A stretch of DNA of 64,000 nt from Mobula hypostoma. Lineage: Eukaryota. A program made the translations under genes and the position numbers. Under the pieces are notes generated by a model that saw nothing but the letters and a program-made list of their open reading frames with translations, made no database searches and was not told the DNA's origin. Below are positions 3,951 through 56,990 of the stretch, piece by piece. Position 1 is the stretch's first letter; the number at the start of each line of letters is the position of its first letter. Location of the stretch: the NCBI RefSeq assembly GCF_963921235.1, contig NC_086097.1:130388001-130452000 (forward strand), written 5' to 3'.

Positions 3951-5384
3951 ACAAAGCTTTCAACTCTTCTTACAGCAGAAGAGTACCAAACAGCTTTATT
4001 GCAGAGTTGGAGGAAGGTGATTGTCCATGAACTGAGTGATTGTTTGGCATTTTACTAACACTGTGACATTAGCTGCAGACTTTTAGGTAATGAGTTGGGG
4101 CAGAAGTAAATTCCCACCCCCTACTCCAGCCATTTAATTAACGCAATGAATAAATTTACAATGTTGTTTTATCCTGGATATATTATGCTAACATCAATCT
4201 CTAATTGTCACCACCATAAATAAACTTCATCTATTGGAGTCTATCTTTAGCAGAATTCCTGCTCTACCCTAACCCTTGATGCAAGATCTTTTTAGTTTTC
4301 ACACTTAAATAAAACAAAATATTTGGTCAATAAGAATAATTGCAAGCAGCTTGGTGAAGCAGTGTAATGGAAAATTGTTGTTTAAATCAAACCACTGTCC
4401 TTGAGAAATCTGTATCTCAGTCAAGAGAATGTGAGATTAGGAATCCCTCAGTAGAGATAGACTCCTGGGATAATATTGTTGACTAGCTCAGAGCAGTGCC
4501 TGTGGGATCCCAGCAGTAGGTCATTGAACCTCTCCCTATCTCAACTAGGGACTGAATACAAGACCCACAGGGAGAGAATAATTACAGGGTAAAACAAGGC
4601 TGAAGTTTAGATTAAAATATAAGATTTTTAGCAAGATAACTCTTAAATCTGAAGGTTGCTTCAGATCAGAAAAAATGCACAAAAATTAGAAGAAAGATAT
4701 ATTATGGGGTTGTATTGTAGTCATTAACTTCTCTCATAGCACTGATTATAAATTGAAATAACTTTGTAATTACTGTACCAAGGTCTCCAAAAAGGGTATT
4801 ATCGCTATTATTATCCTTATTGTTAATTATTTGTTGCAATGACAAATTTCTGCTTTCTTAGTGGCCGAATGGTTTGTTGTTTCATTTCTTGAATAGATGT
4901 CCGCGCGCACGTGTGTGTACATACATTACCAATGCTTATGACAAGCGATTTTAAATCCTTGGAGGTTCATTGTTGAATCACTGGGCTTGGCACACACCTG
5001 AGCTAATGTGTATGACTCTGATTGGTTAAATTCTGCCATAGTGTGAGTCATCTGATATGTGATAATTATTTGATTGTTCTACTGCCTGTGGCTTAAAGAT
5101 GGGCCTTTGAATGCTTTATTGGCGCCTACTATCCATACATAGTCTAAGCAGTGATTGTTGACAACTGCTGCTTGTGAACTACAATAATAAATAGCAGGTT
5201 TCTTTTTTTAAAGTCAAAACAAATGCAACATTGACATCAAATTAGGCATAAAAACATTATTACTTGAAGAGGAAGGGAAGCAATTGTGATTTGATGGGTT
5301 TTGTGGTCAGAAATACAAAAACGTTCCCACTTAGTGATTCCAACTTATCACACGTGCGTGGACCACAGAATATGGTTTATTGGA

Positions 5385-5600
5385 TGGCACTCTTGCTTTC
5401 AGGTCTGTAGCATTAAGACCTGCACCAGAGGGTAGAGTAAAATAAAACAGAGCTGATATTTTGATTCAATCTTGAGGGAATGCGGCCTCCTTCGCGAAAA
5501 CTTAACCTGAAATATTCCTATTTTCCTCCTTAGGTTACATAAAGGATCCCACAGCCATACTTTAGCAGAGTTGTCTGTAATATCCCCTCAAATGGATTAA
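5385..5600 (+). mobile_element. Decayed Deu-domain SINE (SacSINE1-like)
   Basis: TGAGGGAATGC ... TAAAGGATCCCACAGCCATACTT resembles the Deu-domain consensus. Confidence 0.45.
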
Positions 5601-5639
5601 GGAATGCTCTGGATCTTCAGGTAGGATTCAACAATTCTT

Positions 5640-5726
5640 CAGGCAGCATCTGAAAAAGGGTCTCAGCTTGAAATGTCGACTCTTCATTCATTTCCATAGA
5701 TGTTGCCTAACCTGCTGAGTTCCTCT

Positions 5727-5763
<37 letters not shown>

Positions 5764-5800
5764 GCTCTGGGTTTCCAGCATCTGCAGACTTCCTCATGTT
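5640..5800 (+). mobile_element. Penelope-derived short element with a decayed hammerhead motif
   Basis: CTGAAAAAGGGTCTCAGCTTGAAATGTCGAC..CATAGATGTTGCCTAACCTGCTGAGTTCC is homologous to the 3' ends at 23094-23195 and 26136-26266. Confidence 0.8.
5732..5762. repeat. (TG)n microsatellite, about 15 units
   Basis: Seen directly. It sits where the TTGTGTGTGTTGC motif of the Penelope-derived tail normally lies. Confidence 0.95.
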
Positions 5801-5989
5801 AATAATCAATGATGCTCAACATTTAACACTCAAATGATATGCCAATTCAATGTACAAGTTCCTGTTCTGGACTGACTGCTCCAGTTAATGTTACTGTGTA
5901 TCACATATCTTTATAACCAGAATACTATATATGGTAATTTAATGGAGACTTTTTAACAAGGCAAAATTACCTATCATTTTTAGTAAACC

Positions 5990-7020
5990 ACAGCACAGCA
6001 ACGTTGTATAATTTACAAACTGACTATAGTTTCAGTCCCATCCCAGGTTTACAAGAGTTGGTAAATTTTCTCAATCGATGTGTTTCCAGCTCAGAGGAAA
6101 TGGTCTCACTTGCAAACCTGTCTCAACAATCATGGACAAAGGGCTCATTTGTTGGAGCCATTCTGCTGTTTGAATTAGTCTTTCTGTAAGAGTGGGCCTC
6201 ACAATGACTTTGTTATTATTGCTCCCACTGTTGTTGAGGAGTTTGACAATGTGGTGGTGCCAGTTCTGGAATGCAATCTGATTCATAATCCATAAGAAAC
6301 TACATTCAGACTGAATTATGTATCTCTCTCCCTAGAACCATATGAACCTGGGGCACTCATCTGATTCCAACAGCAGTCTGAATGTGATACAAAAAAGAAC
6401 AATTTTCCACCCGTCTGCATTTATTTTGCTCCTGGTTCAGTAGAGTTGACAAACAACCTGTCCTCCAGGCCTTGTCCATCAAGTTTGGGCTTTTGTAATA
6501 TTTTGCTTTTACAATGGGTAAAATCACACATTGTCTATTTTATATCAGCAGGATAATGTTTGCAGAGTATCCCTTGAATATGTTCTGAATTGATCTCTGC
6601 TTGTCTTTAGGGGAGATTCTGTAAATCAGTTTACTGGATAAGAATAGCATAGTTGGTCTTCACGTCGGACTTGTTACTGATTAAAACCTGTGTCTTGAAA
6701 CATTGATTCACTTGGTTTTCTCTTTGTTCACTTACAGCATGCGATCTGTCTATGGGAATTTCTTTATCATTGCCAAGATCTGCACAATGCTTCTTCAGTC
6801 TGGGTGGTGACCTGCAAGTTGCTGCAATATGGCTCTTACACGGACATATGAGCAGCTGATGGTTTGAGTTTGCATTGCTGTTCTGGTTGATTGCCATTGC
6901 GTCTTGGATCAGCAGGCTCTGTCAACCTGATTAGTTGGCATAGTCTGTTATGTAGGGCTATAACGAAGTCTATTATGAGCCACTTGGAAATAGAGCTCTG
7001 ATGAGTTGAACGTTCCAATC
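5990..7020 (-). mobile_element. Very old RTE-clade LINE ORF remnant (endonuclease end and linker)
   Basis: Minus-strand peptides in the expected RTE order: KWLIIDFVIA (cf. WHxIDYVIV), NSNHQLL (cf. TDHRLL), WHHHIVKLLN (cf. RWxEHFxxLLN), AGNTSIEKIYQLL*TW (cf. AGG..EKLHQLF..IW). Confidence 0.55.
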
Positions 7021-7439
7021 TTCATTAAAGTTGCTGTCTGACGGTCTTTCTCAGAAGTAAATTCACACGCCAAATGACTTTAAATCCTTTCATCGGTGAG
7101 TTCACAAATTAACATGTTTTTTTAATGGCTCTGCTATGAAACTTTTGAAAGCTGCAAAGAGACATTCTTCAATGGCACACCAGAATTACAGACAGATTCA
7201 CTGTATCTTTGATTTTGTGTCGCAAACTTATCACCTTTGGTTATCTTTAAAGATATAGGGTTGAGGTGCTCCTTTAAGTTCTGATTAATTTGATTAAGTT
7301 CTGGTTTAGTATGGTACTGATGAAGGATAGTGACTTAATAGCAGAAAAAAACTGCTAATTACTTAATCACATATTTTCTCAGAAACGATCACTGCAATCA
7401 ATAGCTTGCAACTTCCCTTTCAGAACTGAGCATTTGAAC

Positions 7440-8010
7440 CTCCTGTACAACCTGCATTTTTGGGCGTGAACTTAGGTCTAGAAGGTGTGGGATGGTTGCA
7501 GTGTGGCATGTACCGGCCAAATCGAGGCAGCAGGGCATGGGCCTAAAAACAGGAAATGAGCCGATTTTTGGCTGCTGGAGCGGACTTGGAGGCGATCTGA
7601 AGTGGCAGAACTGAGGCACGGCTGAGTTGAGGCAGTGGCGCGCGAGAATGAGGAATAAGCCAGTGTTTGATCGATTTAAACGCCAGGGTGTAGGAGGCCA
7701 GAGGAGAGGGACAGACTGGTGTTCAGCTCGCTGCTCGGGGTGGCTTACCCATCTTTGTGATGAACTGAGGCTGTGGCTTACAACTAACTGGCTCCAGGAC
7801 TGATTGCACCGATGACTGGTTTTGTGGCTGTGGGACTCACTTTCGTGAACTTCAGTTCTGAATGTTATTTGCTTACTTTTATTGTTCTCATTATTTGTTT
7901 TTTTCTGCACATTGGCTATATGACGGTCTTCTTTTTTTAATGCGTTATATTGGGTTTCTTTGTTTTGTGGCTGCCTGTAAGATTGTATATGTACTTTGAA
8001 ACTTTTATGT
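7440..8010 (+). mobile_element. Non-autonomous retroelement with a GC-rich body and a Rex1-type 3' tail
   Basis: GGACTCACTTTC...TGCACATTGG...TATATGTACTTTGA matches the Rex1 tails at 38540-38800 and 43786-44040. Confidence 0.6.
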
Positions 8011-9184
8011 TTGTACCACCTTTGCCAAGACTGTGTATTTTGAGATAAATTCTTAAATTGCTTTGTTAACCACTGCCATTCATTTCTATACATCGCAAAT
8101 GACTCCAAATCCTGATAGAAAGCGCTTGGTTTCCCAATATTAAGAAATGAAGTAGCCTTCCTGTTATATTCTTCAAATTCTGTTGGTGCTCCTAGTAATG
8201 ATGACAGATACAATTGTGGAAAGTTAGAGGGTCTGTTAATTCAATTATCTCACTGTTCTGTCCACTGAGCCACTGGCAAAATTTTCTTCAGCATGATTCC
8301 CACTTCACAAAAAAATGTCAGGAGGCTTGTGATCCATTCTCCCGCTGTAGATTAAAACTGCCTCACGACATGTGCATCATTACAGGCCCTGTGTGATGAT
8401 GGTACCGCGGTCCTTACAGTCTCTAGATTATTTATAAAACTCAACACTTAATATCTAAATTAACTCCGTTAATACTACAAATTTTTAATCCAGACTGGCT
8501 GTTGTTGTGATTATTGCAAATTGGAAATATCACATAACTACTTGTCCAATATGAGAACAGCACAGGGAAGGGACTGTATTATTCCAGATGTCTGGCTAAT
8601 ATTTAGTTATCTGTTAATATTAAATTGTTTTCCATGGAAGCTTGAAATATGAAAATTGGTTACAAAAATATTTAATTGGCTGACACTTACGATGGGAGAT
8701 CCTGTGTTCACGTTCAGTGCTATTCAAATGCAAAGTGCTCTCACTTGCACGAAAAAACAATTTTTAAAATAAATTCGTAACTTAATCTCACTCTAAGGTA
8801 ACTCCAGAAATAATGCTCAAAGGCTATATGAGGTCATTCATGCCAATAATAACAGCTTCTTTTTGTCAGCTCATAGATTATTTCAACATTGATTTCACTC
8901 AGAAACACTTCTCTTTTGGTGGGATACTGTTATTATCATTTGCTTTATTTTAAAATTAATCTGAATGCCAGCACATTCATCTTATCTCAATACTTTTTAT
9001 GTGTTATAACCTTTGCTCATTTCCCACCTTCTTGCAAACACTCCCTCTCCACTAACAAAAACTGAGAGAAATGAGGACTAGTGCAAGCTTCCTGAATGGT
9101 GCCCATCACCTACCTGAAACTTGCGCAGACTCAGCACCAATTAGTGTCAGTCCAGCAGCTGAGTTAAGATGACAGCTTAACTCA

Positions 9185-11879: not shown

Positions 11880-12115
11880 TTTGCCTCTAGGTGGTAATAG
11901 GACTATTTGCAAATCTGAGGATGCATTGCTTTTGCTCAAAGCAGCGGGGCAACAACTGAGGAAGTCTGCTTGTGCATTCCCAGGCAGCTGCTTTCACTTC
12001 GCAGTGCAAGTGACGAGGGATAAACAATTTCTCCAGATTTTCCCTGACGGTTGTGCAAAAGCCGGTTGGAATCCGAAAGCAGTATTTGTCCCCGGGGACC
12101 TATTTGCAAATGCAC
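11880..12115. promoter_or_regulatory. Candidate enhancer/insulator (dense transcription-factor motif cluster)
   Basis: CTCF-like TGCCTCTAGGTGGTA, two ATTTGCAAAT, GAGGAAGT, CAGCTG, CTTTCACTTC and GTCCCCGGGGAC in about 230 bp of non-repeat sequence. Confidence 0.4.
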
Positions 12116-12144
12116 AAGTCAGACAGATGTTGAGAGTCAGGGTT

Positions 12145-12560
12145 ACGGATACAGGTCCTTTGGCTCAATTCATCCATGCAACCATAGTGCTCACGTTTGT
12201 CCGCATTTGTCCCATATCCCTCTAAACTCCTCCTATCCAAGTACGTTTTCAAATGTCTTTTGAATGTTGTTATTGTACCTGCCTCAACCACTTTCTCTGG
12301 CAGCTCATTCTATGTTCACACCACTCTCTGCAAGAAGTTTCACCTCCAAACCCTTTTAAACCTTTCACCTCTTATCTTCAAACTATGCCCTCTGGCTTTA
12401 GTTCCTGTTTCTTTGGAAAAACACTGTGTGCCCCTCTACGTATACCCCTCATGATTTTATGCAGCACTATAAGGCTACCACTCCATATTGTATGTTCTAA
12501 TAAATTCAGACTACCCAACCTCTCTCTGTAACTCAGGCTCTTGAGTTTGGGCAATTGGTG
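12145..12560 (-). mobile_element. CR1 (HER1-like) LINE 3' end
   Basis: Minus-strand peptides LSYRERLGSLNL..GSLIVLHKIMRGI and VEAGTITTFKRHLKTYLDR. Confidence 0.9.
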
Positions 12561-15884: not shown

Positions 15885-16700
15885 GAGATATAAGAGACTG
15901 TAGATATTGGAATTTGGACTCTAGAATAAAAACAAACAACTGCTGGGGAGCTCAGTTGATCTGTGAAGGGAAACAGATAGTTGCCATTTTGGTTTGAGAC
16001 TGGATGCAGGTGCTGCCTCAACCTAAGATATATTAACTGTCCATTTCCCTCCACAGATGGGGTCATAGAGAACTACAGCTCAGAGAGAGGTCCTTTGGCT
16101 TACCTGGCAAATGTCGAACTATTATTCTGCCTAGTCCCATTGACTGCAATCTGGACCATAGCCCTTCATTCCCCTCCTATCCATGTATGTATCCAAACTT
16201 CTCAAATATCAACATTCACTAATTCAGTCGATAACGTGTTCCACAAGCTCTCACCACCCCCTGAGTAAAGAAGCCCCTCTTCATGTTCTCCTTAAACATT
16301 TCACCTTTCTCCCTTAACCCACGACCTATAAGTCTAGTCTTATCCAACCTCAGAGGAAAGAGCCTGCTTGCATTTATCCCATGTATACCCCTCATCATTG
16401 TGTATATTTTTATCAAAACTCTCCTCATTTGCCTATGCTCCAGGAAATAAAATGATAATCTATTCAACATGGGTCCTCAAACCCCAAGGTTAATCTTTGA
16501 AAATTTTCTGTGTACTCTCTCAATCTTATTGATTGCTTTCATGTAGGTAGGTGAGCAGAACTGCACACTATACTGCAAATTAGGCTTCAACAACATTTTA
16601 TACAACTACAACATATAATCCCAGCTCCCGTGTTCAATAGTTTGATGCTGCTGATCTGTTGAGTTCCTCTAGCAGTTTGTTTCTTATGCTCCAAACAGCA
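15885..16700. mobile_element. Fold-back Penelope-derived short element split by a CR1 insertion
   Basis: The head AAACAACTGCTGGGGAGCTCAG is the inverse of the tail TGAGTTCCTCTAGCAGTTTGTTT. CCACAGATG|CTGCTGATCTG rejoins across 16060-16645. Confidence 0.65.
16060..16645 (-). mobile_element. CR1 LINE 3' fragment
   Basis: Peptide LNRLSFYFLEHRQMRRVLIKIYTMMRGI. Same subfamily as 37265-38090. Confidence 0.9.
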
Positions 16701-20942: not shown

Positions 20943-21430
20943 CACTCAATGGCCACTTAATTAGATACCACTCGTACCTAAGAAAGTGGCGACTGGTGCA
21001 TGTTCATGATCTTCTGATGCCGTAGTCCATCCACCTCAAGATTCAATGTGATGTACATTCAGAGATGTTCTTCTGCATACCATTGTTGTAATGCATGGCC
21101 ATTTGAGCTGCTGTTGCCTTCCTGTCAGCTTGGACTAGTCTGGCCATTCTCCTCTGACTTATCTCATTAACAAATCATTTTCGCCCACAGAACTGCTGAA
21201 CACAGGGTGTTTTTTTGTTTCTCACACAATTCTCTGTAAACTCTAGAGACTGTTGTGAGTAAAAATCTCAGATCAGTAGTTTCTCAGACACTCCAAACAC
21301 TCCCGTCACTTACATCACATTTCATCCCCATTCTGATAATTGGTCTGGATAACAATCGAACCTCTTGACTATGCCTACATGCTTTTATACATTGAGTTGT
21401 AGTTACATGATTGGTTGATTAGAGATTTGC
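20943..21430 (-). mobile_element. Tc1-like DNA transposon remnant (N-terminal HTH region of the transposase)
   Basis: TA|CACTCAATGGCCACTTAATTAGATAC terminal repeat. Minus-strand peptides MGMKCDVSD..TTVSRVYRELCEKQK..QRRMARLVQADRKAT, ATG at 21331. Confidence 0.85.
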
Positions 21431-22234
21431 TCCTCTGTCTGCGTCAGTGACTGCAAATCGAAGCCTGACATATCAAATTATCTAAACTGTGCAGCATCAG
21501 CCTGCACTACAGCTCACCATAGTGAATACTGTTGGCCATCTTTCAAACTAGATGGAAGAACATTTCACCAGAGAATTCACACTTAGCGAGGAACAGCACC
21601 TGAATCTATACAAATCTACATTGATTCAACTGGAACAATGAACATTTCTCACCCAGTTCCCCAACAACACTTAGTATTCAACCAACCACTGGGTTCAGTA
21701 TTCAGGTCTTAACTAGAAGTACAGACCTTTTCATTATATTTATGCCACAATTCCACTGCAACTTCTTTTGGAAAAGCATAAAATTTGCAATTACCTTGAC
21801 CTGTTTTTGAAGTTTCAAGCAAATAACAACGACTGTATCGGCATGGTAGTCATCACAGTTAAAATTTGAAAAAGAAATTGAAAATGACTGTGTGGCTAGG
21901 CATACTGTAGCTCAAATGGCATCTATAACTTTGCCAATGATACTATCACTGTAGGCAGAATCTCAGATGGTGATGAGAGGGCGTACTGGAGTGAAATATA
22001 CCAACTAGTTCAGTGGTGTTTTACCAATAACCTTGCACTCAACATTAGTAAGACCAAAGAGCTCATTGTGGACTTCAGAAAGGGAAGAACGAAGGAACAC
22101 AAACCAATCCTCATAGAGTGATCTGAAGTGGAGAGAGTAAGCAATTTCAAGTTCCTGGATGTCAAGATCTCAGAGGACCACCTGTTCACAACATATTGAT
22201 GCAGCTATAAAGAAGGCAAGACAGTGGCTATATT

Positions 22235-23195
22235 GTCCAACATATAATTCTCCATAACTTCCGCCACCTCCAACGGGATCCCACCACTAAGCACATCTTT
22301 CCCTCCCCCCCTCTCTCTGCATTCCGCAGGGATCGCTCCCTACGCGACTCCCTTGTCCATTCGTACCCCCCATCCCTCCCCACTGATCTCCCTCCTGGCA
22401 CTTATCCTTGTAAGTGGAACAAGTGCTACTTCCTCCCTTACCACCATTCAGGGCCCCAGACAGTCCTTCCAGGTGAGGCGACACTTCACCTGTGAGTCGG
22501 CTGGGGTGATATACTGCGTCTGGTGCTCCCGATGTGGCCTTCTATATATTGGCGAGACCCGATGCAGACTGGAAGATCGTTTCACTGAACACCTAAGCTC
22601 TGTCCACCAGAGTAAGCAGGATCTCCCAGTGGCCACACATTTTAATTCCACGTCCTATTCCCATTCTGATATGTCTATCCACAGCCTCCTCTATGGTAGA
22701 GATGAAGCCACACTCAGGTTGGAGGAACAACACCTTATATTCCGTCTGGGTAGCCTCGAACCTGATGGCATGAACATTAACTTCTCAAACTTCCATTAAT
22801 GCCCCACCTCCCCCTCGTACCCCATCCGTTACTTATTTATATACACACATTCTTTCTTTCTCTCTCCTTTTTCTCCCTCTGTCCCTCTGACTATACCCCT
22901 TGCCCATCCTCTGGGTTCCCCTCCACCCTTGTCTTTCTTCCCGGACCTCCTGTCCCATGATCCTCTCATATCCCCTTTGCCAATCACCTGTCCAGCTCTT
23001 GGCTCCATCCCTCCCCCTCCTGTCTTCTCCTATCATTTTGGATCTCCCCCTCCCCCTCCCACTTTCAAATCCCTTATTCACTCTTCCTTCAGTCAGTCCT
23101 GACGAAGGGTCTCAGCCTGAAACGTTGACTGTACCTCTTCCTACAGATGCTGCCTGGCCTGCTGCGTTCACCAGCAACGTTGATGTGTGTTGCTT
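22235..23195 (+). mobile_element. Penelope-like element, 5'-truncated: linker, GIY-YIG endonuclease, 3' UTR with hammerhead
   Basis: VQHIILHNFRHLQRDPTTKHIFPSPPLSAFRRDRSLRDSLVHS; after a frameshift, FTCESAGVIYCVWCSRCGLLYIGETRCRLEDRFTEH..PVATHFN..RLEEQHLIFRLGSLEPDGMN; stop at 22799. Confidence 0.95.
23094..23131 (+). ncRNA. Minimal type-I hammerhead ribozyme motif (Penelope-associated)
   Basis: CAGTC-CTGACGA-AGGGTCTCAGCCT-GAAA-C-GTT-GACTG: stem I CAGTC/GACTG, CUGANGA and GAAA boxes, NUH triplet GUU. Confidence 0.75.
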
Positions 23196-23682
23196 ACTTA
23201 AGACATCTACAGACGTACTGTGGAGAACATTCTAACTGATTGCATCAGCATCTGGAACGGGGAGGTGGGGGGGGACGTCTACTGCACAGGATCGAAGTGA
23301 ATTGAAGAAAGTTGTAAATTTAGTCAGCTCCTTCATGGATATTAGCCTCTGTAGTATCCAAGACATCTTCACGGATTGGTGCTTCAGGAGTTGCGTCCAT
23401 CATTAAGGACTCCCCCACCACCCAGGACATGCCCTCTTCTCGTTGTTACTGTCAGTTAGGAAGTACAGAAGTCTGACGGCACACATTCAGTGATTCAGGA
23501 ACAATTCTTCCCCTCTGCCATCGATTTCTAGTTGGACATTGAACCCATGAACACCACCTCATTACCTTTTTTAAATTTATTTCTCTTTTTTGCACTACTT
23601 ATATTAACTTAACTATTTAATATACATTATATACTTACTGTAATTCAGTTTTTTCCTGTATTTATCATGTATTGCAAAGTAC

Positions 23683-24308
23683 TTGCATAATTAAAATAAA
23701 ATATTGCATACACATCACCGAGGATCTTATGTGGTCTATACATACCAACTGTCTGGTGAAAAAAGCACAACTGCATCTCCTTCACCTCAGACGGTTGAAG
23801 AAGTTTGTTATGGGCCCCCAGGTCCAAAGAACTTTCTACAGGGGCACAATTGAGAGCATCCTGACTGGCTGCATCACTGCCTGGTATGGGAACTGTACTT
23901 CCCTCAATCGCAGGACCCTGCAGAGTGTGGTGCGGACAGCCCATTGCATCTGTAGTTGTGAACTTCCCACTATTCAGGACATTTACAAAGACAGGTGTGT
24001 AAAAAGGGCCCGAAGGATTATCGGGACCCGAGTCACCCCAACCACAAACTGTTCCAGCTGCTACTATCCGGGAAACGGTACCGTAGCATAAAAGCCAGGA
24101 CCAACAAACTTCTTCCACCAGGCCATCAGACTGATTAACTCATGCTGACACAACTGTATTTCTATGTTATATTTACTATCCTGTTGTACATACTGTACTA
24201 CTTATTATAAATTACTATAAATTGCACATTGCACATTTAGACAGAGACGTAACGTAAAGATTTTTACTCCTCGTACATGAAGAATGTAAGTAATAAAATC
24301 AATTCATT
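23683..24308 (+). mobile_element. Nested Rex1/Babar 3' fragment (relatively well preserved)
   Basis: HITEDLMWSIHTNCLVKKAQLHLLHLRRLKKF..FYRGTIESILTGCITAWYGNCTSLNRRTLQSVVRTA. Confidence 0.9.
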
Positions 24309-24374
24309 ACTGCTGCTGCAAAGTTAACACATTTCACGACATATGCCAGTGATACTAAACCGGATTCTGATTTA

Positions 24375-24640
24375 AGCCAATCTGCACACAACAACTCCTA
24401 TGACAGTGATATGATAATGACCAGATAGTTCTTTTTAATTTAATGTTGATTTAGGGATAAATATAGGACAGGCAACCAGGAACCCTGCTTCTCATCAATA
24501 TGTTTCAACAATGCAGAACTCTCTCTGCATGACAGCAGGCTGTAAGCTTTGATTTTTTTTTTCCCACTTAAGGGTCTAATCGTGAGATTTGAACATGCAG
24601 CCTTCTGATTCTGAGACCAGGATGCTTTCCACTGAAAACC
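24375..24640 (-). mobile_element. Decayed Deu-domain SINE
   Basis: ATCTGCACACAACAACTCC..GATATAATGACCAGATA..AGGGATAAATAT..; tRNA-like head inverse GATTTGAACATGCAGCCTTCTGATTCTGAG. Confidence 0.6.
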
Positions 24641-25329
24641 TGCAGCCATCAAGCTGCAGAAAATACCACTTAAGAGGGGGCATTGATCTGTGCAGCAGAT
24701 AGGACTCACTTCTGTGTGGTTCTGCTGGGTTCTTTCTATTCCTATAGACACCTAGTAGGAGCTATGAAGCACAAAGAAACTACAAACAATTTCTGTTGAT
24801 AGACAGAAATCACAGGAAACAGACTGAATTTGCAAGTTTGGATAAGCTGTGTGCTGTAATTGCATAGCACAGCAGGCACAAAAAGATTTTAAAAACTGAG
24901 CTACCGAATAAAAATCAGAAGAGAAAGGGAACTGATGGCAAAGGATAGTGATATTGCTCTACTCCCAGCATTGCTCCAGAACATCACAGCTCTCTCTCGT
25001 TCAGAACTAAATTGGCAGGTAAGGAAGTAAAAACACAGGAAAAGCAGAAACCTTTCAGATGGTTATGGAAGCTGAGAAAAATGTTGGAAATGCATCTAAA
25101 GTTAAAGGCCAAAAAGAGTCATAATTATTTAGCAAATATTGGAAAGGGGAATGTAAAGTTGCGAAGGAACAGAAAAGACATTTTCTGAAGATGCTGGCAA
25201 CTAGTAAATTAGTTCTTTAAAGGATTGGGAGAGATGATATGAGAAGAAGGTATTTTTCCACTTTATGTGCCCTGCATACAAGAAATACTAACTTGTTCTC
25301 TTTAAATGGGTTTCTGATTCAAATGCACA

Positions 25330-25442
25330 CATAGAACATAGAAGAGTACAGCACAGTATGGGTCCTTCAGCCTATGATGTTGTGCTGACCTATAATCCAT
25401 CTAATCCATCCCCACTATACAGCCCATAACCCTCCATTTTCA
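25330..25442 (-). mobile_element. CR1/HE1 3' terminal fragment
   Basis: CATAGAACATAGAAGAGTACAGCACAG..GGTCCTTCAGCC is the reverse-strand CR1 3' end. Confidence 0.75.
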
Positions 25443-25689
25443 CTGGGAAGAGAGGAGGCCTCCCCAGGTGAAATGCACTTCTTTACTTTTTTTCCACCAT
25501 CCTTGTCAACTTTCTATTTTGCAACATAATGCAGGTTGGGAGAGGTTTTGACACACTTGGACTTCATGCACAAGTGTGTTAATATATGTCTTTACTGCAC
25601 ACCTCGGTCCTCCTTTTGTTGTTCTGATTCTGGGCACAGAAATTTTGGATCTTGCAAAACAGTCACAAAACCAACAACCTTTTCACATG

Positions 25690-26266
25690 GTCTCCACAAC
25701 AGACAGGATCTCCCAGTTGCCACCCACCTCAACTCTGCTTCACATTCCCATTCGGATATGTCCATACATGGCCTCCTCTACTGCCATGATGAGGCTAAAC
25801 TCAGGTTGGAGGAGCAACACCTTATATACTGTCTAGGTAGTCTCCAGCCCCTTGGTATGAACTTCTGGTAATTCCCTCCCCCTCCCTTCCCCTATCCCTA
25901 TGTCACTCTGCCCCCTCCCCCAGCTGCCTATCACCTCCCTCATGGTTCTGCCTCCTTCTACTACTCATTGTGTTTTCCCCTATTCCTTCTTCACCTTTCC
26001 TGCCTATCACCTTCCTGCATCCCCCCCCCCCACCCCTTTATCTTTCCCCTTACTGGTTTTTCACCTGGAACCTACCAGCCTTCTCCTTCCCACCCTCCTT
26101 CACCTTCTTCATAGGGCCTCTACCCCTTCCCTCTACAGTCCTGACGAAGGGTTCTGGCCCGAAACGTTGACTGATCGTTTCCATGGATGCTGCCTGACCT
26201 GCTGAGTTCCTCCAGCTTGTTGTGAGTGTTGCTTTGACCCCAGCATCTGCAGAATATTTTGTGTTT
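25690..26266 (+). mobile_element. Penelope-like element 3' end (GIY-YIG C-terminus and 3' UTR)
   Basis: QDLPVATHLNSASHSHSDMSIHGLLYCHDEAKLRLEEQHLIYCLGSLQPLGMN, followed by a pyrimidine tract and the hammerhead motif. Confidence 0.95.
26136..26173 (+). ncRNA. Minimal type-I hammerhead ribozyme motif (Penelope-associated)
   Basis: CAGTC-CTGACGA-A-GGGT-TCTG-GCCC-GAAA-C-GTT-GACTG. Core, stem I and stem II (GGGU/GCCC) are intact. Confidence 0.8.
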
Positions 26267-26704
26267 ACTTTCCACATGGTGCTCAGCAGAGGTTCACCCA
26301 TGACGAAGGTGAAGGAAGAACTGAGGAAGAGCATTAGTACATAGAGAGCTGAGAGAAGTAGAAAGCAGCGTCCCTCTATTAAGTGGAGAACCTCAAACAA
26401 TTTCAGACAAGAGCAATGGGATCTATGACAGTACCCTATAAAATCCTGACAGGTGAAAAATACCAGTCTGATTGGCAGAGAATAGGGATGAAATTTATCT
26501 TTACTAACTGGAAGTAAAAGGGATCAAAAATCTAATTTGACTATAGCTTAATAGTCAGATACAGCAAAGTAAAAGTGAAATATCTCAAAAGGTAGAATAA
26601 AACCGTGTGCATGCATTTGCACAGAATTCTTCTTCAATTGCTATTTGAAAGTCTAAAACAAAACTGCAGATGTGAGAAATGCGAAATAAAAACCAAAAAT
26701 GCAG

Positions 26705-26850
26705 GAGATACTTAGAATCCTACATGCCTTTGGGGTGTGTGAGGGAAATTGGTCACAAGGAGAAGATGTAAACTCTACACAGGTAGCACCCGAGGTCAAT
26801 TTTGAAGATCACTGGTACCACGAGGCAGTGGCTCTGCTAGCTGTGCCTCC
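26705..26850 (-). mobile_element. HE1-like SINE 5' fragment
   Basis: AAACTCTACACAGGTAGCACCCGAGGTCA..GAGGCAGTGGCTCTGCTAGCTGTGCC is the reverse of the SINE head. Confidence 0.7.
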
Positions 26851-27189
26851 CAAATTGGCATTGATTGTGGCACTGCACTGCCAACATTTTAAAGGGCCAA
26901 TACAGGCCCAAAGGAGCCAAGGGCACTTGGGTTTGGTACTAGATTTCTGCTCCTGGCTACATCCAGCAAGGGAAGTGGAACATTTGGGAGTGAGAAATAG
27001 ACGCAAGATATCTTCCTGAAACTAGGTGACGGAAGACAGAGTCCCCCCCCCCCACCCCCACCACTAGTGAGGTTAACCGTGTTTCTTGGCAGACCACACA
27101 CTTGCTTATGGAAAACAGGTTTTGGATCACTGAAGATAAGCTGACACTACATTCGTATTCACAACCTTGCGTTCAATATTGCTGAAGAA

Positions 27190-27825
27190 AATAGTCATAG
27201 TCATACTTTATTGATCCCGGGGGAAATTGGTTTTCATTACGGTTGCACCATAAATAATAAATAGTAATAGAACCATAAATAGTTAAATAGTAATATGTAA
27301 ATTATGCCAGTAAATTATGAAATAAGTCCAGTACCAGCCTATTGGCTCAGGGTGTCTGACCCTCCAAGGGAGGAGTTGTAAAGTTTGATGGCCACAGGCA
27401 GGAATGACTTCCTATGACGCTCTGTGTTGCATCTCGGTGGAATGAGTCTCTGGCTGAACGTACTCCTGTGCCCACCCAGTACATTATGTAGTGGATGGGA
27501 GACATTGACCAAGATGGCATGCAACTTGGACAGCATCCTCTTTTCAGACACCATCATCAGAGAGTCCAGTTCCATCCCCACAACATCACTGGCCTTACGA
27601 ATGAGTTTGTTGATTCTGTTGGATTTTTATTGAAGATAAATGTACTATTATTATTATTCAAGGTGAAATATAAGGTTTGACCTTTGGTTCCTTATTCTAA
27701 CGGTTACAGTCCACATGTGCTCAATGGTGGAGAGGGCTTTGCCTGTGATGGACTGGGCTGTGTCCACCACTTCCTGCAGGCTTTTCTGTTCTTAGGCTTT
27801 GGTGTTTCCATACCAGGCTGTGACA
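27190..27825 (-). mobile_element. Rex1/Babar LINE 3' fragments (well preserved 27190-27622; older ~27700-27825)
   Basis: VGMELDSLMMVSEKRMLSKLHAILVNVSHPLHNVL..STFSQRLIPPRCNTERHRKSFLPVAIKLYNSS; 3' terminus (ATGACT)n after AATAAA. Confidence 0.9.
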
Positions 27826-29116
27826 CATGAGGGAGAAATGAGTACAATATTATCGTGAAATGAAGTCAGGTAGAAGGAACCTTGTGCATCAGGACTAGCA
27901 TGCCACAGTGGGCCAAATGGTCTCTTTCATTTGCAAATACTGTCTATTCTGTGATGTGCCCATAATTGCTCTCCTGGTGGCAACTCAGAATGATTAATGG
28001 CCTAAAAAGAGGCTATGCAAATGTTGCTGAAGACTGAAAGAAAATAAGCAACTGACAAACTCTTCATTTCAATAAAAAAATCCCTTTCTTCAACAATATT
28101 GAGCAATCAACACATGGATTTTATGTTATGGTAGTTTGCCCTCCGTGATTCTGAATCTGTTTTTCATAAGCAAGCACATCCCCTGCCAAGAGGTACAGTC
28201 AACCTTACAGGTGATGGGGAGACACTGCTTCCTCTCAGTCAGTCTCAGAAATAGTGTCCGCCACATAATTTTCTCCATTCAGACTTTTGAGTAGTGAACT
28301 GCCAAGGGGAAATAACTTCTCTGTAATGGGAGTCTGGCAAATGTGGAACTGCTGCACACAAGATGAGATCTTCAAGTAGTTTAAGATCCGTGAAAAATAT
28401 TCAAGCAGTTTTTATTCTTCTCAGAAGTGCCTGATTATATTTTAACCTTCACTTTAATGTCAACAGAGTATAAATTGTGCAGTAATGTGTGGAGCTCGAA
28501 CCGGGTATAATATCTGATGGTTTACTGTTGCCTCACAGGAGCCACTGTGAAAAGTAGTGCTTTCAAAGACTGCCCGAAAGATTTAAGCTGCGAAAAAGAG
28601 GGAGCTGAGCCAAGAGCAGCAAACAGCATGGCTTCCCCCATCCTGCCCAGCTACACACTGTACACTGCTGACATCCTTCCTTAGGGATCACATTTCACTG
28701 CTGTAACAAGTTTCATCTGGAGTCTGATTAAACTGAGAAACAGCTTAAAAATGGAGTCAGCAGTCCAGCAAGGTTTTGTTTTATTAGTATCTGCTTAAGA
28801 AAGAGACAAAGGATTTTTTTATATATAAAAGTTTGACACAGCTTCAATGTTTTACAGCTTGATGAAGTGTTTTTAGGAGTGTGCTCATCAGTCATCACTG
28901 TTGCTTTGTAGCAAGTAAAGCAGGCACGGCAAGATCTCAGACACTTGAGAAGATGGATACCATCCAGGACGACACAGTGCTGCCCAAATATTCTCTGCTT
29001 CACTGGGGCATTGTCAGAAAAGGGTGCTAGCTTTATTTTGACACTGTAGGCTGACACTACATTGCCAGAGCAGCCAGGGTGAGTGTCTGCAGGTTACTTT
29101 GCAGATGGCACACATC

Positions 29117-47699: not shown

Positions 47700-48045
47700 C
47701 TGAACAGTGGCCGTGATAATATACTACTCGCTATATAGAAGTGTAATTGACCCCGCCGATTAGTGGCAACAGAGGAAGAGGTCAGGAAATTGAATTGGGT
47801 TACTGAATAGCAAAACATTTCCCCCTGAATTAAAACACGCCGCAACAACTCTATCTCGGGGGACCAACTCTGTATTAAACTTTTGTGTAGAAAGGAAAAA
47901 TACGGCAGATATTGGAAGTGTCGGAGTGAGTGTTTTTGTAGAGGGAGAGTGTGAGGTTTTTAGTGGCTGTGGAAACTTCATTATACCAGAGAACCCAGCA
48001 GCTGCGTTAAGTCTTGGGTTTTGTTTCTGGGAGAATCGGGTAAGT
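47700..48045 (+). promoter_or_regulatory. Possible promoter or non-coding first exon
   Basis: Unique and CpG-retaining. TATATAGAA at 47732, ETS-like GAGGAAG/CAGGAAAT, donor-like CGG|GTAAGT at 48039/48040. Confidence 0.25.
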
Positions 48046-48189
48046 CTGGCTGAACCCCCTTTACCATTGCTCCCATCTTGGTGCATAAACGAACTGAAGC
48101 CGTTTCACATCTCACTCACTGAAGGCAATTGGCCACGGCACATAAAGGCGTGTTGGGGTCAGCTGGGGCAAAATTGCTGCTCTAATGTA

Positions 48190-49170: not shown

Positions 49171-52100
49171 TGTATTTAATATTTTAGAAATATTTGAGTA
49201 ACATTGTAAACATATTGTTTGATTAAGCCTTCTTTGTTTGTTTAAATAATTCATTATGGGTTATATGTAAAAGTATGTGAATGGCATATATCATTACACC
49301 ATTATGTCACAAGTGTGAGCCTTGCTTAAAGTAAAAACGTAGTTAGACATGTTAATCCCAGCTCTGTGTTTTTAGTTCAATTAGTTTTATGTTCTAGAGT
49401 AAAGAGTAAGTTTTAAATGAACCTGAGATGATGACCCACTTGTTGAAGCACAGTGAGATGTTTGAGTTTTTAAAAAAGTTCAGCGAAACATTCGAGTTAA
49501 AAAAGGCAGAAAACGAGCAAATTCTTGGGTTCTTAAAAAGTGAGTACCAAGTGAGAATAATCATAATTTTTTTTAGGAAAAGGTGAAATGGCTGGGTACA
49601 TCAGAAAGACATACACATTTGACTGCACAAGGGATAACTGGATATTGCATACTGAATGAATTGAACATTATTTTAATGCAAATACAATATCCAATGAAAA
49701 GCAAGTGCCACTTTTGTTGAATGGCATACAGTTTACTTAAAGTTTACCTGCTCCAACCAAACCAACTGAAATGAGCTTTTCTGATATCGTGAAAGTAATG
49801 CAGGGTCATTTAGAACCGAAACCATTGTTGATTGCAGAATGTGTTAGGTTTCACATTCACCATCACAAACAAAAGGAGTCCACTTCAGTGTAGTTGGCTG
49901 AATTGAAGAGATTGTCTGAGCATTGTCAGTTCAGTGACGGGCTTAATGATATGCAGTGTGATAGTTCAGTTTGTGGAATCTTACAAGAATGTATTCAAAA
50001 TGGCTCCTAAATGAAGTACAACTGACATTTAAAAGAACATTTGAAACTACTGTATCAATGGAATGAAAGTGAGCATGAACAAAATTGCAACATCTAAACA
50101 GAAGCGAGCCTGGCCAAACAAATTGTGTTTCCCTTAAGGCAGGGACTTCAGTATGCTAGATCAATGCAGATTTAAAAGACGAAACTTGAAGAAAATGCAA
50201 CAAAGTAAGACACATCAATAGTACATTGGTTAGACAAAAATAAATGAGCTCCACAGGGAAGAGAAAAAGTTAAAAAGTCAAGTTGCAGTTTCAAAAAGAG
50301 CACAGATCTTCATGCTGTTGATGAAAAATCAGATAATAATGAGAATGACATAGGGTGGGTAGCCTTGAGATTTATAATATGAAAACTAACAATGATGTGA
50401 TATGGCTTATGCCATAATTGTATGGCAAATTAATTAAAATGGAATTGGACACTAGCTCAGCTGTCTCAGTCGTTCTCCAAAATGAGTGAAAAGGTATTTC
50501 AAATATACTAAACTGAACCATGCGGATATCTTACTAAGAATTTATACAGGAGAATAGGTAACTCCTGTGGGAATGACATTCATAACAGTGAAAAAACAAC
50601 AACCAACAAGCCAGTGAGCTAAATCACATGGAGACTGAAGGAATTTTTTCCAGGCTTGACCGGAGCCCCATGTGCAATGCGAGTGGTCTCAGTAGCCAAG
50701 AACAACTTGTCTGTCAGGATCTGTGGTGGTCTTAATGTCACCATCAAACCAGTACTGAAAGTAGATCAATATCCTCTGTCCAGAGGATATCCTCGCATTC
50801 CTTTCTGGAGGGAAATACTTCAGCAGAGTTGACATAGCTGAAGCTTACTTAGAGATGGAGATGGAAGAAAAATCCAAAGTGTTTCTCACCATAAACATTC
50901 GAAAAGGGCTTTATTGCTATAGTAGCCATATTTCTGCAGTAGCACCTGCACCTGCACTTTGGCAGAAAACTATGGACCAGGTGCTGCAAGGTTGCTCAGG
51001 CATCATCCCAGTAAAGATGACAAGGAACACATTCAAAATCCCAAAACAGTCTTACGAAGATAATAAGGTTATGGGCTCAGAGCACAATACAAGAAGTATG
51101 AATTCTTCAATCAAAGCAACACTTACTGTGGTCATACTATTGATGTGCAAGGATTACACAAGTGTGCTGAGAAAATTCAAGCAGCGGTGGAGCCCCCAAG
51201 GCCAAAGGACATGTCACAGTTGTGGTTCTTTTTCGGATTTGTCAATTATTATAACAGGTTCCTGCCAAACCTGGCTACCATGCTCCACCCCTTGAACTCA
51301 TTATTACACATTGGGAAGAAATGGCAATGGACAAAGCAGTGTGAGGAGGCTTTCAAAAGGTAAAGGAAATGGTGACGTCAAACACTGTATACAGGTGTCC
51401 CCCACTTTTCGAACATTCGCTTTACAAAACCTCACTGTTACGAAAGATCTATATTAGTACCCTGTTTTCGCTTTCAGAAGGTGTTTTCACTGTTACGAAG
51501 AAAGGCAGCACGCGATAAAAAAATCAGCGCGCTGCCTTTTATCGCGCGCTGATTTTTTTATCGCGTGCTGCCTTTCTTCGTAACAGTGAAAACACCTTCT
51601 GAAAGGCAGCGCGCGCCCCGAGCAGCTGCTCTGCCCCAGATTCGGAACCGCATTGCTGAAACACGTTGCATTGAGCAGCCGTTAGCAAGATGAGTTCTAA
51701 GGTGTCGGAAAAGCCTGAAAGAGTAAGGGTGTTACACTTAGCGTAAAACTAGACATAATTAAGCGTTTCTATCGTGGTGAATGAAGCAAGGACAAAGTGA
51801 GTTTGGCTTGTGGAAGTTGACGAAGATGATGTTGAAGAGGTTTTGGCATCCCATGACCAAGAACTGATAGATGAAGAGCTGATGCAATTGAAAGAGGAAA
51901 GGATAACAATCGAAACCAAGTGCAGAAAGTGAAGCAACTGCGTGAGATTTTCGCTGCGATGATAAAGTACGACTTTAATTTTGAAAGGGTACGTAGGTTT
52001 AGGGGATATTTGCAGGACGGTTTGAGTGCTTACAAACAACTGTGTGATAGAAAAATGCGCCAGGCTCAGCAGTCAAGCAAGCTTTCCACATCAGCCACAG

Positions 52101-54042
52101 CAGACGACGAACCTCGACCTTTGACATCGAGGCAGGCAGTCATAGGAGAAGATGAGCTGCCTGCCCTGATCGACGATGAGATGACACCCCCTGTATCCCA
52201 CCACCCGGGCCCCGGACAGATATTGTACTGCTTCGCGAAGAACGCAGCGGTAGCCGGGAGGCACACAGCACATCTTTAAGAAAAAAGCCAAAATAAACAT
52301 GCTAATTAATTAGGTGCTGCCAAGCATGTAATTGTCGGCTCAGATCAGAGGCGATGCAATTGGCAATTGCCTCTGATCTGCGCCGACATTTACGTGCCGG
52401 GCAGCATCTAATTAATTAGCATGTTTATTTCGGCTTTTTTTCTTAACAGTGTGCTGTGTGCCTCCCAGCTACCGCTGCATTCTTCGCGGCAATGTATCGG
52501 ATAGGCGGCCCGGAGGGTGGGGGCCACTGCACCACCCAGCCTGCGACGACTCAGTCTAACACACCATCATCAGTGTGCTCGGCACTGTTTTCCCAATTCC
52601 GGTAAGTGATACTACACTGTACATACATTATTTCTACTTTATATAGGCTGTGTATTTTTACGTGTTATTTGGTAGATTTGGCAGCTTCATAGTTTAAAGG
52701 TTACTGGAGAGCGCATTTATGCCAACAGTGCTTGCGTGAGATTTTCTGCCGAGAGCTTGCGTGAGATTTTCGCTACGGAGATCTGTGCAGGCAATTGTTG
52801 TAGGGAAGTATTTCTACTTTATATAAGCTGTGAATTTATCATATCATTCCTGCTTTTACTATATGTTACTGTTATTTTAGGTTTTATGTGTTATTTGGCA
52901 TGATTTGGTAGGTTATTTTTAGGTCTGCGAACGCTCACAAAATTTTCCCATATAAATAAATGGTAATTGCTTCTTCGCTTTACGACATTCCGGCTTACGA
53001 ACCGTTTCATGGGAACGCCCTACCTTCGGATGGTGGGGGAAACCTGTATACACATTATGATCTACATTGTCCAGTGAAGCTTGCCTATGTGGCCTCACCT
53101 GTGGTGCAGGTGCAGTCACGTCACATGTTATGAGTGATGGAAGTGCCTTTGCACCACGTTCCCTTACTGCTGCAGAGAAAAATTATGCACAAATTTACAG
53201 AGGGGCCTTGAGTCTGGTTTGGGGTGTAGAATGTTTCAACCAATACTTGTACAGGAGAGATTTTACCCTCATTACTGATTATCAACCACTAATGTCCATT
53301 TTCAATGCACAGAAGGGTGTTCCACTAACAGCAGCAGCACGAATACAGAGAATGCAGAGCTTCTGGGAGGACATAATTACAAAATCGAATTCAAGAGGAT
53401 GACTAGTCATGGAAATGCTGATGGAGTGTCCCGTTTATCCTTGGAAAAGGAAGTATCTGAAAAATTTACAAAGGAGGACACTCCTCTTGATGTACCGTAT
53501 TCTCCTGAATGCAGATTGAAAGTCTCCCTATTACGGCAGAGATAATCAAAAGGGAAACCAGGTCTCAGGTCTACATGACCACCCAAAATGGCTGGAATGT
53601 GCAGCAGAAATCCCATTTCTCCCATTTTTAACAGTGCCTGGATGAACTTGCCTTTGACGGGGGTTGCCTTATGTGGGGATTGAGAGCTGCTGTACCATCC
53701 AAGCTGAGAGCTAAAGTGTTGGAGGAGCTACATGCTGGTCATCTAGGTGAAAGTATTGGCTCTAAATTTTGTCTGGCGGCCTGGGATAGGTCAGCAAACC
53801 AAGCAGCTTGCCATACATTGTCCAGAAGAAAGGTATCCAGAGTCGTCTAAACCACTTCTTGCAGTCTCAGAGTTAACTACTACAACTAGCATAGTGGAGG
53901 CTCTTGAACCTGAGATTGTTTCACAGCCACAACACCATAAGCGCATGCCATGCTTAAAGTAAAAGCAAAGTTCAACACATTATTCCCATCTCCGTGCTTT
54001 TATTTCAATTAGCTTTATGTTTTGGAGTTACAAAATTTAACA
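49171..54042 (+). mobile_element. Decayed Ty3/Gypsy LTR retrotransposon (gag, protease, RT, RNase H; integrase mostly deleted)
   Basis: 5' LTR ~49171-49405; partial 3' LTR ~53933-54042 ending ACA. Gag MAGYIRKTYTFDCTRDNW (ATG 49588); protease MELDTSSAVSV; RT VDQYPL..FSRVDIAEAYLEM..APALWQKTMDQVLQG; GFVNYYNRFLPNLATMLHPL; RNase H RSLTAAEKNYAQI..FTLITDYQPL. Confidence 0.92.
51392..53046 (+). mobile_element. Tigger/pogo-family non-autonomous DNA transposon with both termini and TA target duplication
   Basis: TA|CAGGTGTCCCCCACTTTTCGAA ... TTCGGATGGTGGGGGAAACCTG|TA. Transposase N-terminus KGVTLSVKLDIIKRF..GE joined to C-terminal EVDEDDVEEVLASHDQELIDEELMQL.. with no DDE core. Confidence 0.92.
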
Positions 54043-54744: not shown

Positions 54745-54920
54745 GAGACAAGAGACTACAGATGCCGGAATCTGGAGCAGTGGGTCATGCAGTACCTGTG
54801 GGTGGAAAGGAGCTGTTGATGTTTCAGATCCATCAGAGATCTTGATAATTTATACACCCCCCCCACCCCCACAGATGTTGTTTGACTTCCTGAGTTCCTT
54901 CAGCAGATTGTTTGTTTCTG
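54745..54920. mobile_element. Fold-back Penelope-derived short element
   Basis: ACAAGAGACTACAGATGCCGGAATCTGGAGCA head; CCACAGATGTTGTTTGACTTCCTGAGTTCCTTCAGCAG tail. Confidence 0.6.
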
Positions 54921-55279
54921 GTTGAAGGTGGCGATGTGAGAGAACATCACCGACCAAATGGACATATTTACTTGCAGAGCAGCGAATTTAATTGTACTTC
55001 TTTCTCTTTTTAGTCATGAATGCATAGATTTTTCTCAATCCATTTTAAAAAATGTTGGCATTGCCCAACAGGTCAACAGTGACATCCACTCCTTAATGCT
55101 GAGAGAAGTTGGTAATGAGTCTCCTTCATGAAGTTCTGTGGTCTGGGTGTGGAAGTCCTCTCTGAAGACCATTGGATAAGAATAAAGATTCAGAATTGTG
55201 TTCAAAACCTCAAAAGAACATCCCTACTGAGTCCTTAATATTTCTGGGCCATTAAAGTGCATTCAGAATCTTACCTACA

Positions 55280-55659: not shown

Positions 55660-56990
55660 GGGTGTTGGAGATAACCATAAATCCCATCCAATTCCTCCTG
55701 ATTGACTCACCCAGCACTTCTTTCAGCCTGGGTTACTCCTGGCTCTTAATTCACCACCCTCACTTCACATGGTCATCTGGTGTCCTGCTGAGTTGGGGAC
55801 CCACCCATTGAACCAGCTGCCTGCAACCTCAGTTGACTTCTCCCCATAAATCAGTGGAGACAGAGGAAACACTTGACAAAAATCAAACTCCCACAGGAAT
55901 ACCATCGGCTTATTAAAAGGGAGGCCAGCACCCTGGCGCCTCACAGTCCACAGTATTAATGTCCTCCCAGGCACCATCCCTCTCCTAGGTGATCTGTTTT
56001 TCCTCTCCCCTCCTGAGACCCATCCTATGAATAAACAACACAGCCAAACCCAGACGGTGCCGGATTCTTTGTCAAAAGGTACAGTGGGGGTTTTCATCAC
56101 TGCATTGACTGCCATGTACTCAACAAAATCACTATTTAGAAATGGTGCCTTCTTCCCTTGATGGACAGTGTATTTGAAACACTCCATGGGGCCCAGATCT
56201 GTGGCGTGCATACAAACTGATCCGCATCCGCTAGGGGTTGATCAGAGGCTGTTGATGAGAAGACAGCCTTCACAACACCCGCTGGCTACTACAAAAACTT
56301 TGTGATGCCTTTTGGACTTTCCAGTAGTCTAGCCATTTTCCAAGCCTTTATTAATGACATCCTCCGAGACATACTACACAGGTATGTGTTCGTCTACCTC
56401 AATGACATCCTCATCTTTTCCAAGGACCCGCAAGACCACATCTGTCATGTCTGTTCAGTCTTTCAGCGTCTTCTCAAAGGCCATCTGTACTGCAAGCTAG
56501 TGAAATACCAGATCTATGTCCCAGTCATTTCCTTCCTGGGTTGTTAACTATGACCCAGAGAAAGTGCGTGCTGTCATTGAATGTCCTCAGTTGGGCTCCC
56601 TCGAACAGTTACAGTGCTTCTTGAGCTTCTCTAGCTTCTACTGCCGTTTCATCAGGAACTACAGCCAAATGACTGCTCCTCTCACCTCCCTCACCAAATC
56701 ACCTACTCATGGACAACCTGGTCTGCTGCCATGGACCATGCTTTCAAGGAGCTTCACCAACACTCCCATTCTACACCATCAGAACCCCTCTGAACCTTTT
56801 GTGCTAAAGGTGGACGCATCCGACATGGGTGCTGGGGTCACACTCTCCCAGTGAGGACCAGACAGGAAGACACACCCTTGTGCCTTCTTCTAGTGCAAGT
56901 TCAACTCTACACAGCACCATTACAGAATAGCAGACAGGGAGCTACTTGCTATTAAATTGCCTTGGAAGAATGGAGACATTAGCTTGTAGA
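55660..56990 (+). mobile_element. Ty3/Gypsy pol remnant (RT and RNase H), a different lineage from 49171-54042
   Basis: GAGFFVK..CIDCHVLNKITI..LPLMDS; VMPFGLSSSLAIFQAFINDILRD..VFVYLNDILIFS; FYCRFIRNYSQMTAPLTSLTK; PFVLKVDASDMGAGVTLSQ; DRELLAIK. No LTRs seen. Confidence 0.92.

Follow-up and report, generated by a model that had tools for sequence, protein, structure and literature searches.

Penelope-like elements of metazoans, among them Xena, Poseidon and Neptune of fishes, carry minimal hammerhead ribozymes (min-HHRs) in their pseudo-LTRs (Cervera and De la Pena 2014, PMC4209133). Helix III of these ribozymes is not stable, and their design suits action as dimers (PMC4209133; PMC6765202). 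As described in PMC4209133, the motif is of type I, with a helix I of 4-5 bp, positions 9 and 10.1 separated by an unpaired base, a G10.1-C11.1 pair and a palindrome at 15.2-16.2; it follows a GIY-YIG open reading frame in the same orientation, mostly as a single motif in a truncated copy. The locus examined here, which we call the 26136 copy after its first position in the window (the whole 64-kb stretch of Mobula hypostoma DNA that was analyzed), resembles that description on each of these points. It differs in its host, a ray, which is absent from the hosts named in the main text of PMC4209133. Helix II is 4 bp long here versus 7-8 bp in Schistosoma, and the ray family seems to exceed by far the 4,000-9,000 motifs that the same source gives for coelacanth and Xenopus.

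Neptune and Nematis Penelope-like elements, as Craig et al. (2021, PMC8557442) present them, are marked by a CX2-5CxxC linker and a CCHH endonuclease. Close relatives of the ray element share this layout, with a reverse transcriptase (RT), the linker and, at the C terminus, a GIY-YIG domain of CCHH type, and the hammerhead is canonical in both; unlike those elements, the 26136 copy retains only the last 56 residues. PAc, a Penelope-like element of Anolis carolinensis (Poseidon), also carries a hammerhead in its pseudo-LTR (Frangieh et al. 2024, PMC11167929). It belongs to a different clade, Penelope/Poseidon, which lacks the linker zinc finger, and its hammerhead has been assayed. Animal non-LTR retrozymes likewise carry a Penelope-derived type-I hammerhead, and the preprint describing them reports them in one chondrichthyan genome (bioRxiv 10.64898/2026.07.22.740005). 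Retrozymes are tandem non-coding units, whereas the 26136 locus is a single insertion with a coding remnant and a target duplication, and no tandem head-to-tail hammerhead units occur in 21000-29000.

A motif of this kind has thus been described since 2014, also from fish Neptune elements, and the 26136 copy is an ordinary additional member. We found no literature on the hammerheads of this ray family, although supplements outside our search may include chondrichthyan examples. The single copy matters little, as one of very many in a known motif class. The family has some use, since so many related motifs in one genome make it suited to asking if selection acts on Penelope hammerheads in active lineages and if introns are depleted of intact copies in sense orientation. 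The 26136 motif itself is very probably a neutrally decaying passenger of a truncated Penelope-like insertion, and most likely performs no cleavage that matters in the cell.

The hammerhead motif and its carrier insertion

Table 1. Features of the 26136 locus and its sister copy (window positions)
Feature	Position	Strand	Basis or remark
5′-truncated Penelope-like insertion (Neptune/Nematis-type, judged by relatives), 576 bp	25692-26267	+	bounded by target duplication; homology
Target-site duplication, left copy, 13 bp	25679-25691	+	direct repeat
Target-site duplication, right copy, 13 bp	26268-26280	+	direct repeat
C-terminal remnant of GIY-YIG endonuclease ORF, 56 aligned residues	25695-25871	+	homology
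Minimal type-I hammerhead motif	26136-26173	+	sequence read, descriptor, fold
Stem I arms CAGTC/GACTG, 5 bp	26136-26140/26169-26173	+	
CUGANGA box, reads CTGACGA, = C3-A9	26141-26147	+	
Single extra A between 9 and 10.1, unpaired	26148	+	
Stem II GGGT/GCCC, 4 bp (3 G-C + 1 U-G), closed by G10.1-C11.1	26149-26152/26157-26160	+	
Stem II loop TCTG, 4 nt	between 26152 and 26157	+	
GAAA = G12-A13-A14-A15.1	26161-26164	+	
CG, then U16.1, then U17 (= H17)	26165-26166, 26167, 26168	+	
ACGU palindrome = A15.1-C-G-U16.1 = reduced helix III	26164-26167	+	
Second intact-core hammerhead	23094-23131	+	descriptor; G-U for G-C at base of stem II
Longer sister copy, linker remnant + full GIY-YIG domain	22235-23197	+	Pfam, tblastn

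The letters of 26136-26173 are exactly those given in the initial annotation, and stem I, the CUGANGA box, stem II, GAAA, the GUU triplet and a predicted cut directly 3′ of 26168 are all present (Table 1). The core in type-I order, a 5-bp helix I, a 4-bp helix II, the extra A and the palindrome are all features of a min-HHR. That annotation had read the palindrome as AACGUU. In standard numbering only ACGU is the palindrome that pairs; since A14 and U17 are part of the core, the longer form is a by-product of U17 in this copy.

A descriptor comprising the core, a stem II of at least 3 bp and a stem I of at least 4 bp matched the 64 kb twice, at 23099 and 26141, both on the plus strand. The same descriptor applied to 200 dinucleotide shuffles gave a mean of 0.01 matches, with one match in 2 of the 200 and two in none. 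The initial annotation had proposed a motif-model search, and in this descriptor version it recovers the site. The covariance-model version came back empty: Rfam gave no match at E<=5 within 24000-28000, to hammerhead families or otherwise. The fold energy of the 38-mer is also ordinary (z -1.87; equalled by 10 of 200 shuffles). The last two results are what a chance arrangement of letters would give, a reading we nevertheless regard as refuted, and its probability as close to nil, in view of the descriptor shuffles and of stem I pairing among metagenome relatives. Two matches against 0.01 per shuffle confirm 26136-26173, at the level of sequence, as a genuine minimal type-I hammerhead motif.

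The relatives were collected with a core pattern made of the core and the first two stem II pairs, leaving stem I out and allowing only U17 or C17. It matched at least 121 metagenome loci and one viral-contig locus. Stem I, although outside the query, reaches at least 4 bp in 51 of the 108 distinct motifs among the matches listed, against 4.3 ± 2.0 (maximum 11) in 1000 shuffles of the arms, and all four Watson-Crick pair types are found among these matches at each of the first five stem I positions. Penelope-like protein matches, obtained with ray proteins as query, lie at 24 of the 122 loci listed, 21 of the 24 on the strand of the motif, which further argues against chance. This combination of stem I covariation and protein linkage among the listed metagenome motifs confirms the hammerhead architecture as a conserved Penelope-linked structure, covarying in related families elsewhere. 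It is the dimer type reported for Penelope-like elements (PMC4209133), as the initial annotation had it.

The match in the viral contig (L122:601-628) was the only one there to the core pattern and is probably chance, since its stems are only 2 bp long. In one metagenome contig (L080:601-681) the core pattern matches both strands, once each, some 25 nt from one another.

Duplication bounds and homology likewise support placing the motif in a Penelope-like element, within its 3′ terminal repeat. The hammerhead lies inside a duplication-bounded insertion, sense to the ORF remnant, and the order within the 576 bp is endonuclease tail, pyrimidine-rich 3′ region, hammerhead and 3′ tail. The two copies of the target duplication are identical at 12 of 13 positions, and no third site in the window comes within one mismatch. 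The endonuclease remnant is identical at 51 of 56 residues (91%) to P0003, a Hypanus sabinus protein (E 1e-33), and at 46 of 56 to P0001, a Mobula hypostoma protein; just upstream of the stop it is five residues shorter than its relatives. Its stop codon occupies 25869-25871, and the hammerhead begins 264 nt downstream on the same strand. A GIY-YIG remnant about 270 nt upstream in sense had been claimed. Distance, strand and homology hold, whereas the remnant itself has no GIY...YIG motif, no RT and no Pfam match of its own. The copy as a whole lacks an RT, a 5′ repeat and a tandem partner.

These features fit a simple history. An active Neptune/Nematis-type Penelope-like retrotransposon would bear the minimal hammerhead in its pseudo-LTR. 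In a tandem full-length transcript of this parent, two motifs would pair via ACGU, exchange the strands of stem I and cleave 3′ of H17, probably helped by the element's protein, as is established for relatives and would extend to the ray family. Reverse transcription from the 3′ end of the element presumably halted after 576 nt, leaving the insertion and the 13-bp target duplication seen in the sequence. The copy would have been decaying neutrally since then, its 11 strict core bases remaining by chance.

A 20-nt inverted repeat, 90% complementary, links 26096-26115 in the element with 26297-26316 in the 3′ flank. In a transcript, the hammerhead would lie enclosed between its arms; the repeat may be a chance product of pyrimidine/purine-rich sequence. 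In addition, a contig from a second organism begins 27 nt inside the 3′ end of the element and runs on through the flank (26241-27214). This is a weak hint that the insertion predates the split of the two organisms, from an overlap of 27 nt that falls below the 31-letter bridging rule.

The ray family and the decay of its copies

The sister copy at 22235-23197 places the carrier within a family. Its Pfam GIY-YIG match (E 1.7e-4) scores 22.2 bits, just below the cut-off of 22.6, and tblastn with P0001 finds it at E 1e-105. A LINE remnant flanks it in two pieces, at 21900-22234 and 23200-23600. In a protein search with this copy, 12 of 71 candidates reached E<=1e-10, and eight of these 12 are named from Mobula hypostoma and Hypanus sabinus. 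In the relatives from these two species an RT is followed by a C-X4-C-X2-C linker and, at the C terminus, by a GIY-YIG domain with CxxC/H/H. P0001 and P0002 carry the linker CKRNKCYTC, a CxxC between GIY and YIG and two histidines, that is, the CX2-5CxxC linker together with CCHH; in P0001-P0004 the Pfam GIY-YIG match falls below cut-off and the RT motifs were read by eye. By the domain features of these close relatives, the carrier family is of Neptune/Nematis type, the 26136 copy itself being truncated.

In the window, 13 fragments of the family reach E<0.01 in a profile search. The hammerhead region is kept in seven window copies, and the core is intact in two of the seven. The best preserved of them is the 26136 copy, with core, extra A, G10.1-C11.1 and both stems intact. 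Decay is of the CpG type. At C11.1-G12 one of the seven still has its CpG; the other six have undergone CG>TG or CG>CA, and in two of these the catalytic G12 is lost. At C17-G1.1 two of the seven have kept the CpG. Across these few, decayed copies 82.5% of the stem cells are paired and covariation is 0.275, no more than shuffles give (127 of 500 reach it).

The family is hugely abundant in public contigs. Contig depth summed over the bin 25742-26402 is 804,421, a figure that is not a copy number, against 11.7-15.1 in seven single-copy-like bins of DNA run X5. The longest family contigs over the coding remnant differ at 12-13 of 134-141 bases. At the loose ends of family contigs the cleavage triplet reads GUC, so the GUU of the 26136 copy is probably a CpG-type change from the family form. 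The chance of keeping all 11 strict core bases is 0.57-0.31 at an assumed divergence of 5-10%. The intact core requires no selection, because its occurrence in two of seven window copies is about what neutral decay gives.

An opposite-strand contig joint at 26216/30765 prompted a wider family profile, and with it an apparent plus-strand bias of the family weakened. The first profile had placed nine of nine matches on the plus strand (two-sided p 0.004), whereas the wider one gave 10 plus and 3 minus (p 0.09), or 10 and 5 with two weaker matches added (p 0.30), and we rejected the bias as a finding. The minus-strand copies of the wider profile at E<0.01 lie at 30858, 36479 and 54832, and two of the three had been added as seeds. 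The seven best-kept family copies (5644, 10268, 23092, 26134, 42735, 57610 and 60052) are all on the plus strand, with a post hoc p of 0.016; older family fragments lie on both strands, as LINE remnants do. The 3′ tail of the family also forms back-to-back inverted pairs at 54754-54924, 15928-16060 and 5624-5744, in which a minus fragment adjoins or overlaps a plus one. The minus-strand matches are weak at 15999 (E 0.5) and 5681 (E 0.2).

Predicted folding and likelihood of cleavage

The isolated 38-mer is predicted to form both stems (P 0.98); in its best fold the palindrome pairs with the core, which is favored over an open core by 2.4 kcal/mol. With up to 10 nt of native flank the predicted stems persist at P 0.96-0.98. 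With at least 25 nt of flank, and in the whole element, stems I and II drop to a predicted P of 0.00, and forcing stem II and an open core in this context costs 8.9-9.5 kcal/mol. The 23094 copy behaves likewise, its in-context stems having P 0.00 (0.01 at most) with at least 25 nt of flank. The active dimer fold is predicted at -19.3 versus -30.7 kcal/mol for the best fold of the homodimer, and at -16.7 versus -31.5 for the heterodimer with the 23094 copy. Since folding models ignore tertiary contacts, co-transcriptional folding and proteins, undervalue hammerhead cores, and were here applied in context to the 26136 and 23094 copies and not family-wide, these predictions lower the odds of activity without proving inactivity.

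Published relatives are sluggish as well. The Schistosoma min-HHR is described as not cleaving as a monomer and as showing low activity in dimers and trimers (PMC4209133). In purified Anolis Poseidon, the account in PMC11167929 is that hammerhead cleavage required the protein of the element, while insertion in vitro could proceed without it; the same source finds no RNA-seq reads starting or ending at the hammerhead site. One of nine Xenopus retrozyme dimers was reported to cleave (preprint 10.64898/2026.07.22.740005). Because the 26136 copy is solitary, predicted to misfold in context and akin to ribozymes that are inactive, weak or protein-dependent, its self-cleavage appears unlikely. The initial annotation had proposed that this copy could still self-cleave; the lack of a tandem partner, the predicted loss of its stems with 25 nt of flank and the record of its relatives speak against that.

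The triplet is no obstacle. We considered whether GUU disables the 26136 copy and rejected the idea, as U17 is found in 55 and C17 in 53 of the 108 distinct related motifs listed. U17 is natural in this motif class, and one argument against activity is thereby removed. GUU is given among the active cleavage sites in PMC3138052, GUC and GUA being the fastest.

A milder form of activity deserves separate weighing. The 26136 copy might be competent and cut rarely in vivo whenever a plus-strand transcript crosses it, invisibly to selection, either by forming a heterodimer in cis with the 23094 copy or by teaming up in trans with family RNA or protein. Its core and stems are intact and its GUU is common among the natural relatives listed. 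The 23094 hammerhead, on the same strand 3,042 nt upstream (the cut sites are equally 3,042 nt apart) and with the same ACGU, is the one hammerhead in the window that could partner it in cis; the intervening sequence is unrelated. Trans partners would not be scarce, given the abundance of family sequence in two putative RNA runs. One contig of a run guessed to be RNA covers the unique flank 24978-25229 with no differences at depth 2.1, a weak and unstranded signal that could be DNA. Among the sequencing runs containing window sequence none is recorded as RNA, and public runs were used as contigs, which reveal neither molecule ends nor strand, so a plus-strand transcript of the locus is hypothetical. 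With this, the in-context misfolding predicted for both copies, the unfavorable dimer energies and the low activity of published relatives, we judge such rare cutting unlikely, and prefer the reading of a decaying passenger without cleavage of consequence.

If a plus-strand transcript did span 23094 and 26136, a double hammerhead formed via ACGU could excise a 3.04-kb RNA with 5′-OH and cyclic-phosphate ends, which might be circularised. Given the abundance of the family, chance pairs of copies or protein-switched pairs in trans would then act genome-wide, as a retroelement-gated layer of RNA cutting in rays. We hold this to be distinctly improbable.

Host transcripts and surrounding sequence

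The initial annotation had further suggested that the 26136 copy could cut a host plus-strand pre-mRNA or lncRNA spanning it. Neither a host exon nor a transcript strand was identified in the window, and the suggestion finds no footing there. All 476 stop-free frames of at least 48 aa yielded no convincing non-transposon Pfam match, although short exons could escape such a search; the matches consisted of transposon domains, five isolated ones far below cut-off (E 0.003-0.009) and RWD at E 0.005. A splice-site scan of the window gave nothing recognisable.

A further reading is co-option of the 26136 copy as a host regulatory element, cutting or terminating a pre-mRNA or lncRNA and kept by selection. 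Were this copy to cut a host transcript, it would be a rare example of host RNA as the target of a minimal Penelope hammerhead. Its core is the best kept among window copies, and the second-organism contig across the 3′ end of the element hints weakly at a shared insertion. That core is nevertheless within neutral expectation, H17 departs from the family form by a CpG-type change, the family is extremely large, and the window offers no host exon. Co-option is consequently very improbable, and neutral decay within a truncated insertion accounts for the copy far better.

Two CpG-rich stretches with long open frames, 11890-12250 and 47700-48150, have no Pfam or PDB match and are possible exons or conserved non-coding elements. 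The candidates tested within them, 11890-12099 and 47763-48104, gave no PDB match; no homologue was found for the former and no Atlas match for the latter. Elsewhere in the window, 50765-53400 and 55768-56851 hold RT and RNase H remnants of LTR-retroelement type, and the remnant at 50765-53400 is broken by a CpG-rich region with long palindromes at 51471-51605 (92%) and 52234-52488 (87%).
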